Positions 22,487-26,580 of a DNA stretch of 64,000 nucleotides are shown here, piece by piece. The DNA lies in the NCBI RefSeq assembly GCF_057098645.1, contig NZ_CM169472.1; one strand, written 5' to 3'. The notes under the pieces were generated by a model, which was given only the letters and a program-made list of their open reading frames with translations, did no database searches and had not been told where the DNA came from. The translations under genes were made by a program, and so were the position numbers. How positions within the stretch are numbered: the first letter of the stretch is position 1; each line of letters begins with the position of its first letter.

Positions 22487-24217
22487 GTGGTGTATATGTC
22501 TAATAAAATCTTTACGCATTCCCTACCTATGCGCTATGCCGATTTTCCAACGCTGGTTGATGCTTTGGACTACGCCGCTCTGAGTAGCGCTGGAATGAAT
22601 TTTTATGACAGACGTTGCCAACTTGAAGATCAACTGGAATATCAGACGTTAAAAGCGCGTGCCGAAGCTGGTGCGAAGCGGTTGTTATCGCTGAACCTGA
22701 AAAAAGGCGATCGCGTGGCACTGATTGCCGAAACCAGTAGCGGGTTCGTAGAGGCTTTTTTTGCCTGCCAGTATGCCGGCTTAGTCGCCGTCCCGTTGGC
22801 GATTCCAATGGGCGTTGGTCAGCGGGATTCCTGGAGCGCCAAATTGCAGGGTTTACTGGCAAGTTGCCAGCCCGCAGCCATTATCACTGGTGATGAGTGG
22901 TTGCCACTGGTCAATGCCGCGACGCATGACAACCCCGAATTACATGTTTTAAGCCACGCCTGGTTTAAGGCATTACCGGAAGCCGATGTTGCGCTCCAGC
23001 GTCCAGTTCCGAACGATATCGCCTACCTCCAGTACACCTCCGGCAGCACCCGTTTTCCCCGTGGCGTCATTATCACCCATCGCGAAGTGATGGCTAATCT
23101 ACGTGCTATAAGCCACGACGGCATTAAATTACGCCCTGGCGACCGCTGCGTCTCCTGGCTGCCTTTCTACCATGATATGGGACGGGTCGGCTTTCTCCTG
23201 ACCCCCGTCGCCACGCAACTTTCAGTAGATTATTTGCGCACTCAGGATTTTGCCATGCGTCCTCTGCAATGGCTTAAATTGATCAGTAAAAATCGCGGCA
23301 CCGTTTCCGTTGCGCCGCCGTTTGGCTATGAATTGTGCCAGCGCCGCGTGAATGAAAAAGATCTCGCTGAACTGGATCTTTCCTGCTGGCGCGTCGCTGG
23401 TATTGGTGCAGAACCCATCTCCGCAGAACAACTCCATCAATTCGCTGAATGTTTCCGTCAGGTTAACTTTGACAATAAAACTTTCATGCCGTGCTACGGA
23501 CTGGCAGAAAATGCGCTGGCTGTCAGCTTCTCTGATGAAGCCTCCGGGGTTGTGGTTAACGAAGTGGATCGCGACATCCTCGAATATCAGGGTAAAGCCG
23601 TCGCGCCGGGTGCAGAGACACGCGCCGTATCGACTTTCGTCAACTGCGGCAAAGCGTTGCCGGAACATGGTATTGAAATCCGCAATGAAGCAGGTATGCC
23701 GGTCGCGGAACGTGTGGTAGGCCATATTTGCATCTCCGGTCCCAGTCTGATGAGCGGTTACTTTGGCGACCAGGCTTCGCAAGACGAGATTGCCGCGACG
23801 GGCTGGTTAGACACTGGCGACCTCGGTTATCTGCTGGACGGTTATCTGTATGTCACCGGACGCATTAAAGATCTGATTATTATTCGTGGCCGTAATATCT
23901 GGCCGCAGGATATTGAATATATAGCGGAACAGGAACCGGAAATTCATTCTGGCGATGCGATTGCTTTTGTTACCGCCCAGGAAAAAATCATTTTGCAGAT
24001 CCAGTGTCGGATCAGCGATGAAGAACGTCGCGGGCAGCTTATCCACGCGCTGGCAGCACGGATCCAAAGCGAATTTGGCGTGACCGCGGCTATCGATCTG
24101 TTGCCGCCCCACAGCATTCCCCGAACGTCCTCCGGCAAGCCTGCCCGTGCGGAAGCGAAAAAACGTTATCAGAAGGCTTATGCTGCAAGCCTTCATGTGC
24201 AGGAATCCCTGGCATGA
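22487..24217 (+). CDS. fatty acyl-AMP ligase / acyl-ACP synthetase (adenylate-forming enzyme)
   Basis: 576 aa; adenylation motifs YTSGSTRFPRGV, YGLAENALAV, GEI-type SGPSLMSGY, WLDTGDLGY, GRIKDLIIIRGRNIWPQDIE; start may be GTG 22487 or ATG 22496. Confidence 0.8.
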   Translation: MVYMSNKIFTHSLPMRYADFPTLVDALDYAALSSAGMNFYDRRCQLEDQLEYQTLKARAEAGAKRLLSLNLKKGDRVALIAETSSGFVEAFFACQYAGLVAVPLAIPMGVGQRDSWSAKLQGLLASCQPAAIITGDEWLPLVNAATHDNPELHVLSHAWFKALPEADVALQRPVPNDIAYLQYTSGSTRFPRGVIITHREVMANLRAISHDGIKLRPGDRCVSWLPFYHDMGRVGFLLTPVATQLSVDYLRTQDFAMRPLQWLKLISKNRGTVSVAPPFGYELCQRRVNEKDLAELDLSCWRVAGIGAEPISAEQLHQFAECFRQVNFDNKTFMPCYGLAENALAVSFSDEASGVVVNEVDRDILEYQGKAVAPGAETRAVSTFVNCGKALPEHGIEIRNEAGMPVAERVVGHICISGPSLMSGYFGDQASQDEIAATGWLDTGDLGYLLDGYLYVTGRIKDLIIIRGRNIWPQDIEYIAEQEPEIHSGDAIAFVTAQEKIILQIQCRISDEERRGQLIHALAARIQSEFGVTAAIDLLPPHSIPRTSSGKPARAEAKKRYQKAYAASLHVQESLA

Positions 24218-25128
24218 ATCAAACTGTCGCGGTGACGGGCGCTACCGGTTTTATCGGTAAATATATTATCGATAACCTGCTCGCCCGCGGCTTTCACGTT
24301 CGCGCATTGACGCGTACTGCCCGCGCTCACGTCAATGACAATCTCACTTGGGTGCGCGGTTCGCTGGAAGATACTCATTCACTTAGCGAGCTGGTTGCCG
24401 GAGCCAGCGCGGTGGTTCATTGCGCCGGACAAGTGCGCGGGCACAAAGAAGAGATTTTCACCCGCTGTAACGTTGACGGCAGTCTGCGCCTGATGCAGGC
24501 GGCAAAAAAGAGCGGTTTTTGCCAACGTTTTCTGTTTATCTCTTCGCTGGCGGCGCGCCATCCCGAACTCTCCTGGTACGCAAATTCCAAATACGTCGCC
24601 GAACAACGGCTGACTGCAATGGCTGGCAAAATTACGCTGGGCGTTTTTCGCCCGACAGCCGTGTATGGTCCCGGCGATAAAGAGTTAAAACCGCTGTTTG
24701 ATTGGATGCTGCGCGGCCTGCTGCCACGACTTGGTGCGCCAGATACACAACTCTCTTTCCTGCACGTCACCGATTTTGCGCAAGCAGTGGGTCAGTGGTT
24801 AAGCGCCGAAACTGTACAGACGCAAACCTATGAATTATGCGATGGCGTCGCTGGCGGCTATGACTGGCAACACGTACGACAGCTTGCCGCCGACGCCCGT
24901 TGTGGTTCTGTGCGGATGGTTGGCATTCCTCTGCCGGTACTCACCTGCCTTGCGGATATCAGTACTGCGTTGAGTCGCCTGGCAGGTAAAGAACCTATGC
25001 TGACCCGCTCGAAAATTCGTGAATTAACCCACGCCGACTGGTCGGCAAGTAATAACCGTATTTCTGAAGATATTAATTGGTTTCCCGGGATTAGCCTGGA
25101 ACACGCATTACGCAACGGGCTATTTTGA
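24214..25128 (+). CDS. NAD(P)-dependent extended SDR (epimerase/dehydratase family) reductase
   Basis: 304 aa; Rossmann VTGATGFIGKYI and catalytic YANSK (YxxxK); ATGA overlap with ligase stop. Confidence 0.8.
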   Translation: MNQTVAVTGATGFIGKYIIDNLLARGFHVRALTRTARAHVNDNLTWVRGSLEDTHSLSELVAGASAVVHCAGQVRGHKEEIFTRCNVDGSLRLMQAAKKSGFCQRFLFISSLAARHPELSWYANSKYVAEQRLTAMAGKITLGVFRPTAVYGPGDKELKPLFDWMLRGLLPRLGAPDTQLSFLHVTDFAQAVGQWLSAETVQTQTYELCDGVAGGYDWQHVRQLAADARCGSVRMVGIPLPVLTCLADISTALSRLAGKEPMLTRSKIRELTHADWSASNNRISEDINWFPGISLEHALRNGLF

Positions 25129-25159
25129 TTGTCTTGTTTAAAGGTGTGTTAACGTTTCT

Positions 25160-25408
25160 ATGGTAAATCGTGAAATAGTAATGGATTACATCCTTTCCTG
25201 TTTACAGGATTTGGTCGAAAACGGTGTGGAAATTAAGCCCGACAGCGATCTCGTCAACGATCTTGGCCTGGAGTCGATCAAAGTGATGGATCTCTTAATG
25301 ATGCTGGAAGACAGATTCGATATTTCCATTCCTATTAATATTCTGCTGGATGTCAAAACCCCTGCGCAATTAATGGAAACTCTACTTCCATGGCTGGAGA
25401 ATAAATAA
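25160..25408 (+). CDS. dedicated acyl carrier protein
   Basis: 82 aa acidic protein with phosphopantetheine-site-like DLGLESIKVMDL; alternative start ATG 25181. Confidence 0.75.
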   Translation: MVNREIVMDYILSCLQDLVENGVEIKPDSDLVNDLGLESIKVMDLLMMLEDRFDISIPINILLDVKTPAQLMETLLPWLENK

Positions 25409-26580
25409 TGGGGCTATACGATAAATATGCGCGCCTTGCTGGCGAGCGACTGCAATTTAGTGACAACGGGTTAACACCGTTTGGCACCTGTATTGATGAA
25501 GTGTATTCCGCCACCGAAGGCCGGATCGGCAATAAAAAAGTGATTCTGGCCGGGACCAATAATTATCTCGGTTTAACCTTTAATCATGATGCCATCGCCG
25601 AAGGTCAGGCAGCGTTAGCGGCCCAAGGCACCGGCACCACCGGTTCTCGTATGGCAAACGGCAGTTATGCGCCGCACCTGGCGTTAGAGAAAGAGATTGC
25701 CGAGTTTTTCAATCGCCCTACCGCTATCGTTTTTTCAACCGGTTATACCGCTAATTTAGGCGTCATCAGCGCACTTGCCGACCATAACGCCGTGGTGTTA
25801 CTGGATGCCGACAGCCACGCCAGTATTTATGACGCCTGTTCTCTCGGTGGCGCGGAAATTATTCGTTTCCGCCATAACGATGCTAAAGATCTGGAACGGC
25901 GCATGGTTCGCCTCGGTGAACGGGCGAAAGAGGCGATTATCATCGTTGAGGGTATCTACAGCATGCTCGGTGACGTTGCGCCGCTGGCGGAAATTGTTGA
26001 TATCAAACGTCGTCTCGGTGGTTATTTGATTGTCGATGAAGCGCATTCGTTTGGCGTGTTAGGCGCAACGGGGCGCGGACTGGCTGAAGCTGTCGGCGTT
26101 GAAGATGATGTGGATATTATCGTTGGCACCTTCAGTAAAAGTCTGGCCTCGATTGGCGGTTTTGCTGTCGGTTCGGAAGCGATGGAAGTGCTGCGCTACG
26201 GCAGCCGCCCGTATATTTTTACCGCCTCTCCTTCTCCGTCCTGCATTGCGACCGTGCGCTCGTCGTTAAGAACCATTGCCACACAACCAGAGCTGCGGCA
26301 AAAGCTGATGGATAACGCCAACCATCTGTATGACGGTCTGCAAAAACTGGGTTATGAGTTAAGTTCACATATTAGTCCGGTAGTGCCGGTAATAATCGGT
26401 TCGAAAGAGGAAGGTTTACGCATCTGGCGCGAGCTTATTTCGCTGGGCGTTTATGTGAATCTTATCCTGCCACCTGCCGCGCCTGCAGGCATCACGCTGC
26501 TGCGCTGTAGCGTAAACGCTGCCCACAGTCGTGAGCAAATCGATGCCATCATTCAGGCATTTGCTACTCTGAAGCAGTAA
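25408..26580 (+). CDS. alpha-oxoamine synthase, serine palmitoyltransferase-like (PLP-dependent)
   Basis: 390 aa; PLP-lysine motif GTFSKSLASIGGF and DADSHASIYD resemble SPT; TAATG overlap with ACP stop. Confidence 0.8.
   Translation: MGLYDKYARLAGERLQFSDNGLTPFGTCIDEVYSATEGRIGNKKVILAGTNNYLGLTFNHDAIAEGQAALAAQGTGTTGSRMANGSYAPHLALEKEIAEFFNRPTAIVFSTGYTANLGVISALADHNAVVLLDADSHASIYDACSLGGAEIIRFRHNDAKDLERRMVRLGERAKEAIIIVEGIYSMLGDVAPLAEIVDIKRRLGGYLIVDEAHSFGVLGATGRGLAEAVGVEDDVDIIVGTFSKSLASIGGFAVGSEAMEVLRYGSRPYIFTASPSPSCIATVRSSLRTIATQPELRQKLMDNANHLYDGLQKLGYELSSHISPVVPVIIGSKEEGLRIWRELISLGVYVNLILPPAAPAGITLLRCSVNAAHSREQIDAIIQAFATLKQ

Follow-up and report, generated by a model that had tools for sequence, protein, structure and literature searches.

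The aasR-epi-acpR-spt operon of Escherichia coli, a very probable entry module of sphingolipid synthesis, and two lesions in its O145:H28 form

Introduction

Two described systems stand closest to the locus that is the subject of this paper. In Caulobacter crescentus the genes spt, acpR, epi/cerR, aasR and aca/bcerS are found at CC_1162-CC_1165 and CC_1154, and in Escherichia coli BL21(DE3) the genes yghO, aasR, epi, acpR and spt are found at ECD_02850-ECD_02854. In a comparison of seven Rhodobacteria genomes, C. crescentus and E. coli BL21 were the only two in which these five genes form a cluster (PMC9386255). Here we describe the equivalent genes in a stretch of 64,000 nucleotides (the window) of contig NZ_CM169472.1, RefSeq assembly GCF_057098645.1, from an E. 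coli O145:H28 strain. We are highly confident that positions 22487-26580 of the window are the aasR-cerR(epi)-acpR-spt operon of E. coli, whose products form the entry module by which bacteria make sphingolipid (ceramide). Sphingolipids in E. coli, if real, would be notable, as the species has long been described with only three major phospholipids.

A good deal is known about the products of these genes. Co-expression of the BL21(DE3) proteins AasR(Ec), AcpR(Ec) and SPT(Ec) leads to formation of 3-oxo-sphinganine in vivo (Padilla-Gomez et al. 2022, PMC9386255). In the same study the serine palmitoyltransferase (SPT), SPT(Ec), supplied with L-[14C]serine, preferred palmitoyl-AcpR to palmitoyl-coenzyme A (CoA), the carrier tested being Caulobacter AcpR, and AcpR(Ec) was found to take up beta-alanine, that is, to carry 4'-phosphopantetheine (PMC9386255). 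The fatty acyl-AMP ligase (FAAL) of the system, studied as EcFAAL, acylates the holo form of the acyl carrier protein (ACP) EcACP in vitro and does not acylate CoA, and its rejection of CoA has been explained (Patil et al. 2021, PMC8460268). It should be kept in mind that the published activities of EcFAAL and AasR(Ec) are those of enzymes with Leu at position 230 (PMC8460268, PMC9386255). As for the later steps, yghO (ECD_02850) is listed as an N-acyltransferase homologue of Caulobacter CC_1154, and ECD_02852, a short-chain dehydrogenase/reductase (SDR), has been proposed as the keto-sphinganine reductase (PMC9386255). The step taken by the SDR is disputed, the substrate being either 3-ketosphinganine or the N-acylated oxo-ceramide that follows YghO/bCerS action (PMC11087976). 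Finally, LptF2 and LptG2 of Caulobacter are needed for sphingolipid transport, in a report that also draws the locus of E. coli UTI89 (bioRxiv 10.64898/2026.04.12.717747).

How does the present locus compare with these two? With BL21(DE3) it has in common the locus itself, the gene order, the junctions and the flanking island genes; BL21(DE3) differs in lacking two changes that are present in the O145:H28 strain, a nonsense mutation in yghO (W116*) and a ligase substitution (L230R). With Caulobacter, likened here through the literature, the five-gene set and the LptF/LptG paralogues are shared. The ceramide phosphoglycerate genes and lptC2 are missing from E. coli, which instead has genes for a YtfJ-like protein, a 274-aa hypothetical protein, YghQ and YghR/S/T. 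The ACP-channelled mechanism has already been documented by crystallography, by acyl transfer in vitro and by reconstitution in vivo, and RefSeq names spt. Thus the operon is already characterised, annotated and published, and only the strain-specific lesions are news.

Results

Four co-directional open reading frames (ORFs) on the plus strand, read directly from the sequence, occupy 22487/22496-26580 and encode, in order, a ligase, an SDR, an ACP and an enzyme dependent on pyridoxal 5'-phosphate (PLP). The 6.9-kb core around them, 20900-27800, is 100% identical to O145:H28 chromosomes, for example that of E. coli O145:H28 RM13514, in which RefSeq names the four products as fatty acyl-AMP ligase, NAD-dependent epimerase/dehydratase family protein, acyl carrier protein and spt (serine palmitoyltransferase). 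An initial annotation, made from the letters of the window, had read these genes as a ligase-SDR-ACP-SPT operon. The motifs that it quoted are all found in the sequence, and its overall reading is supported by the profile scores given below and by published experiments on near-identical E. coli proteins. Its proposal that an acyl-ACP is channelled to a Claisen condensation agrees with the results for the BL21 trio (PMC9386255) and with the loading of holo-EcACP by EcFAAL (PMC8460268), and the reconstitution that it suggested as a check has already been performed in essence.

The gene spt (25408-26580, plus strand) encodes a PLP-dependent alpha-oxoamine synthase of 390 aa that differs from BL21(DE3) ECD_02854 at two positions (388/390 identical). 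The protein scores 600 bits against the NCBIfam SPT equivalog NF047599, whose cut-off is 500. Rival families fall below their cut-offs, namely bioF (334 vs 426), Kbl (298 vs 460) and the CqsA type (221 vs 428), and the ALAS model is also under its own, so that the earlier assignment as an SPT-like synthase and not a BioF or Kbl holds. BioF, Kbl, ALAS and CqsA have the PLP fold and decarboxylative Claisen chemistry in common with SPT; they differ from it in using other substrates and in having no linked ACP-ligase pair. Here spt is directly preceded by acpR and the genome contains the aasR ligase gene, in the order ligase-SDR-ACP-SPT.

Alignment with the Sphingomonas paucimobilis SPT (2JG2) has an E value of 8e-112. 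His137, which lies in DADSHASIYD, Asp210, His213, Lys244, which lies in GTFSKS (AAA, 26137-26139), and Arg366 align with S. paucimobilis His159, Asp231, His234, Lys265 and Arg390, so that the fold-defining residues of the S. paucimobilis and S. wittichii enzymes (2JG2, 2X8U) all have equivalents in the present SPT. These key residues are kept in 41-43 of 41-44 linked orthologues, the Arg390 equivalent R366 in 43 of 44. There is one difference. Where S. paucimobilis has Arg378, which contacts the serine carboxylate, the present enzyme has Leu at residue 354 (26467-26469, plus strand), and the position is hydrophobic in 43/44 linked SPTs.

The first gene, aasR (22487-24217, plus strand), encodes EcFAAL, the fatty acyl-AMP ligase for the dedicated ACP (PMC8460268, PMC9386255). 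Against NCBIfam PRK09192, 'fatty acyl-AMP ligase', the enzyme reaches 872 bits where the cut-off is 600, and it is identical at 569/573 residues to the EcFAAL crystal structure PDB 3PBK, a match that covers the whole chain without gaps and leaves four substitutions, one of them the exchange of Leu for Arg in HDMGL. Its prior description as a FAAL-type ligase is thereby confirmed. From BL21(DE3) ECD_02851 it differs at 7 positions (566/573 identical). The FAAL-specific insertion and helix are present by virtue of the ungapped identity to 3PBK, the structure in which these elements were described (PMC8460268), and the adenylation core contains the motifs YTSGSTRFPRGV at 23033-23068 and GRIKDLIIIRGRNIWPQDIE at 23858-23917. 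The 3PBK enzyme rejects CoA and loads stand-alone holo-ACP, and the present ligase is nearly identical to it.

Where the ligase begins is uncertain; its ORF encodes 573-576 aa. The GTG at 22487 was the choice of the initial annotation and fits the residue numbering used for EcFAAL (PMC8460268); from the ATG at 22496 onwards the protein matches the 3PBK chain, the PRK09192 profile aligning from residue 6; and the ATG at 22529 is the RefSeq call. No convincing Shine-Dalgarno sequence precedes any of the three.

The ACP gene, acpR (25160-25408, plus strand), encodes an 82-aa specialised carrier that is the same RefSeq protein, WP_000248097.1, as BL21(DE3) AcpR (ECD_02853), with no differences. 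The phosphopantetheine site is Ser39 in GLESI (TCG, 25274-25276); this serine and the identity to ECD_02853, which carries the prosthetic group, mark a PP-binding fold with a phosphopantetheinylated serine (PMC9386255). ACP profiles match AcpR with scores below their cut-offs.

Between ligase and ACP lies the gene for the extended SDR, the 'epi'/CerR homologue ECD_02852 (24214-25128, plus strand; PMC9386255, PMC11087976). The protein, of 304 aa, matches Pfam Epimerase PF01370 with E=4.6e-23, has a Rossmann motif GATGFIG at residues 9-15, and differs from BL21(DE3) ECD_02852 at 10 positions (294/304 identical). The YxxxK catalytic pair that had been pointed out is present as Y122-A-N-S-K126, both Y122 and K126 being kept in 40/40 orthologues. 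A role as CerR is predicted here, following the assignment of ECD_02852 in PMC9386255 and otherwise supported by synteny.

Two of the junctions are overlaps, found just where they had been reported. At 24214-24217, in ATGA, the ligase TGA (24215-24217) overlaps the SDR ATG (24214-24216), and at 25406-25410, in TAATG, the ACP TAA (25406-25408) shares a base with the SPT ATG (25408-25410); the gap between SDR and ACP is 31 nt. Because the 4-nt ligase/SDR overlap recurs in 16 of 37 related loci of other bacteria, and the ACP and SPT genes overlap, by 1, 4 or 14 nt, in 26 of the 37, the tight junctions are a conserved feature, beyond chance. To judge from their sequence, the junctions are consistent with translational coupling.

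The four operon ORFs are intact in the O145:H28 strain. What, then, of the divergent neighbour? Across the intergenic region lies yghO (20983-22125, minus strand), the predicted sphingoid-base N-acyltransferase gene, 'aca'/bCerS homologue and counterpart of ECD_02850 in BL21, which here is a pseudogene. In comparison with BL21, whose yghO does not have the mutation, codon 116 of 380 has changed from TGG to TGA (W116*; 21778-21780, minus strand), leaving two contiguous in-frame ORFs that RefSeq flags as an 'internal stop' pseudogene. The stop sits upstream of nearly all the invariant columns in the YghO family alignment. An AlphaFold2 model of the intact BL21 YghO (pLDDT 96) has a tandem GNAT fold and matches the tandem-GNAT structures 2WPW, 5KF1, 7Q3A and 1OZP with E values of 1e-15 to 1e-12. 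The family is large, with 1128 clusters at E<1e-30.

The second lesion is in the ligase. The HDMGL motif is not intact and reads HDMGRVG, due to L230R (CGG at 23183-23185, plus strand; codon 230 numbered from the ATG at 22496). Among ligase orthologues that are linked to YghO homologues, 43/43 have Leu at this site, as do the FAAL structures 3PBK, 3KXW and 7R7E-G, and the BL21 ligase does not have the substitution. In EcFAAL 3PBK the site lies two residues away from Met231 (numbering of PMC8460268), and it is Met231 that forms part of the base of the blocked CoA pocket (PMC8460268). We read HDMGRVG as bearing on activity in the O145:H28 strain, not on homology. The two lesions travel together: of 4533 matching complete E. 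coli genomes, just 26, each O145-type or a close relative, contain the exact 75-mer with W116*, and the 75-mer with L230R is exact in the same 26. Since yghO is cut at codon 116 of 380, ceramide is probably not made in the O145:H28 strain, and since Arg replaces the invariant Leu of HDMGL, the first step may be impaired as well. That the pathway is functional here is thus not assured.

How widespread is the locus? Of 5426 complete E. coli genomes, 4051 have 80% or more of the 6.9-kb core. At the K-12 MG1655 locus (3130146-3131340), from which the operon is missing, yghO and a truncated yghQ are separated by an IS5, which stands in place of the ligase, SDR, ACP, SPT, lptG2, lptF2, ytfJ-like and 274-aa genes. 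For a wider view we took the best 80 loci encoding YghO relatives, found from a 14-sequence alignment, with a neighbourhood of 10 kb on which the counts that follow are based. These loci span Enterobacterales, Pseudomonas, Nitrosomonas, Nitrospira, Gemmatimonadetes, Deltaproteobacteria and Alphaproteobacteria; Caulobacter is absent from them, and from the top 50 AFDB50 matches of the YghO model. The YghO relatives are linked to spt and to other sphingolipid genes: SPT is found near 42 of the 80, the ligase near 44, the SDR near 40 and the ACP near 38, and among the candidate export genes LptG2 is found near 47 and LptF2 near 44. Serratia and Pluralibacter have the same layout, with yghO divergent from ligase-SDR-ACP-SPT, and the accessory genes as well.

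A different arrangement is seen in Nitrosomonas, Nitrosospira, Nitrosovibrio and one unclassified Burkholderiales metagenome-assembled genome, where the YghO homologue is directly upstream of lptF2/lptG2 paralogues. No spt lies within 10 kb of the YghO homologue at these loci (L027-L034, L041, L045, L048, L052, L054 and L072 of our set). In those ammonia-oxidising betaproteobacteria and the metagenome-assembled genome, it is the transporter, and not the starter operon, to which the acyltransferase is linked.

The operon is part of an island of about 13 kb that runs from the divergent yghO through yghT and includes the lptF2/lptG2 paralogues. In RM13514 the RefSeq neighbours are glcC-yghO on one side and, on the other, lptG, lptF, a YtfJ-family protein, a hypothetical protein, a 'lipopolysaccharide biosynthesis protein', a second hypothetical protein (at the yghR position), yghS, yghT and pitB. 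Outside the intergenic region 5' of the ligase, the island has a GC content typical of E. coli, about 50-52%; horizontal acquisition was considered, and composition gives no sign of it. That intergenic region, between yghO and the ligase (22126-22486), is 361 bp long, AT-rich at 32% GC, and presumed to hold the promoter and regulatory sites of the divergent genes. Silencing of the region by nucleoid proteins is a possibility. At the other end of the operon, between the convergent spt and lptG2, a GC-rich hairpin with a 16-bp stem (26583-26617) is likely, by consensus match only, to be a bidirectional terminator. It is the only long-stem terminator-like site in the region, the other results of promoter and terminator scans being no better than those from shuffles.

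Beyond the hairpin lie lptG2 (26615-27694, minus strand) and lptF2 (27691-28761, minus strand), paralogues of the lipopolysaccharide-export permease genes; between them the two products match TIGR04408 with 309 bits and TIGR04407 with 319 bits. By analogy with Caulobacter they are candidate sphingolipid exporters. There follow, by annotation and, except for the 274-aa protein, family match, genes for a YtfJ-family protein (28792-29355, minus strand), the hypothetical 274-aa protein (29364-30188, minus strand), for which neither Pfam nor NCBIfam gave a match, the MOP-flippase-like YghQ (30188-31537, minus strand), and the P-loop proteins YghR (31583-32341, minus strand), YghS (32373-33086, minus strand) and YghT (33260-33952, plus strand). 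The last three are paralogous and dTMP-kinase-like. This accessory block, 28792-33952, is syntenic with the operon in Serratia, Pluralibacter, Pseudocitrobacter, Erwinia, Rosenbergiella, Hafnia and Mangrovibacter. It is chiefly in Enterobacterales that these genes accompany the operon; elsewhere the matches are weaker and scattered.

Discussion

What pathway would these genes support? In the scheme that we favour, the FAAL, which cannot use CoA, would adenylate a long-chain fatty acid, and the acyl group would pass to the phosphopantetheine arm on Ser39 of AcpR. SPT, with its PLP on Lys244, would then form 3-oxo-sphinganine from acyl-AcpR and L-serine, in a condensation that releases CO2. Reduction by the SDR and N-acylation by YghO would follow, in an order that is disputed, and the LptF2/LptG2 paralogues next door would probably export the lipid. 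The first two steps have been experimentally shown for the BL21/CFT073 orthologues. The last two are inferred from Caulobacter genetics and conserved synteny.

Several points weigh against this assignment, or at least against its full extent. A literature search found no report of sphingolipid made by wild E. coli from the chromosomal locus, the published activity being that of overexpressed proteins. No promoter has been demonstrated, and sigma-70-like matches in 22126-22486 are no commoner than in shuffled sequences. YghO gave no Pfam or NCBIfam match in sequence scans, so that its predicted identity as bCerS rests on the statement in PMC9386255, the fold model and synteny. The SDR substrate is disputed between two candidates (PMC11087976). 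And L230R, to judge from conservation only, may impair the ligase in the very strain described here.

The dispute over the SDR provides the alternative that survives best. In the eukaryote-like order, the SDR would reduce free 3-oxo-sphinganine before N-acylation, rather than an N-acylated oxo-ceramide. The proposed naming of ECD_02852 as a keto-sphinganine reductase speaks for this order, as do the sphinganine-like and ceramide-like spots seen in BL21 expressing SPT systems (PMC9386255); moreover, the E. coli SDR lacks an N-terminal signal peptide, its Rossmann motif starting at residue 9. In Caulobacter, however, Spt and bCerS are cytoplasmic and CerR is periplasmic, and deletion of cerR leads to accumulation of oxidised ceramide, which favours acylation first (PMC11087976). 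We consider reduction first in E. coli to be quite possible, at somewhat less than an even chance.

Might the locus be silent, or decaying? The enzymes would then be competent if overexpressed, while the chromosomal operon would go unused in E. coli and would already be in the course of loss in O145:H28. Two of the points raised above, the missing report of a native E. coli sphingolipid and an upstream region of low GC content with promoter matches not above background, fit this picture; so do the loss of the K-12 operon to IS5 and the joint presence in the O145:H28 lineage of yghO W116* and a ligase substitution at an invariant site. On the other hand, most complete E. coli genomes keep the core, conservation of the proteins between distant lineages of E. 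coli is 97-100%, without frameshifts, and the whole island is syntenic across genera of Enterobacterales at 60-88% protein identity. This conservation and the synteny across Enterobacterales indicate purifying selection, and we think a silent locus unlikely. The weakest alternative, that the synthase is of the BioF/Kbl/CqsA type and that the product is another amino-ketone, such as a biotin precursor, aminoacetone, a signal of the CAI-1 kind, or a sulfonolipid or 1-deoxy base (from cysteate, alanine or glycine), has in its favour the sub-threshold profile matches, a match to the cysteate acyltransferase structure 28eh (E=6.7e-60) and the relaxed substrate specificity of these SPTs treated in PMC9386255, but it is most improbable, as the curated cut-offs, passed by the SPT equivalog, and the published labelling, in which the BL21 orthologue puts L-[14C]serine into 3-oxo-sphinganine (PMC9386255), speak against BioF/Kbl/CqsA chemistry, and the synthase gene is linked to ceramide-pathway genes across phyla.

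Taking the operon, then, as the entry module for ceramide synthesis, one may ask what the rest of the island is for. Because the synteny of the accessory genes is conserved, and because one lineage has two lesions of its own, we tentatively suggest that E. coli and related Enterobacterales might make a chemically undescribed outer-membrane sphingolipid, with head group addition or export by way of YghR/S/T, the 274-aa protein, the YtfJ-like protein and YghQ, and that O145:H28 might be a natural loss-of-function variant. We would call this somewhat doubtful as it stands.

The locus is a genetic basis for possible E. coli sphingolipids. What the present strain adds is small and specific to it: an entire enterohaemorrhagic lineage, O145:H28, with a nonsense mutation in the presumed ceramide synthase gene and a ligase substitution at an invariant residue. 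Such a lineage could serve as a natural control for future lipidomics.

Two further observations concern the glc genes of the window, as annotated in the identical RM13514 genome. RefSeq marks glcF (16178-17399) as frameshifted there, and a quick alignment did not place the indel. It also marks glcA (about 11631-13220) as truncated.

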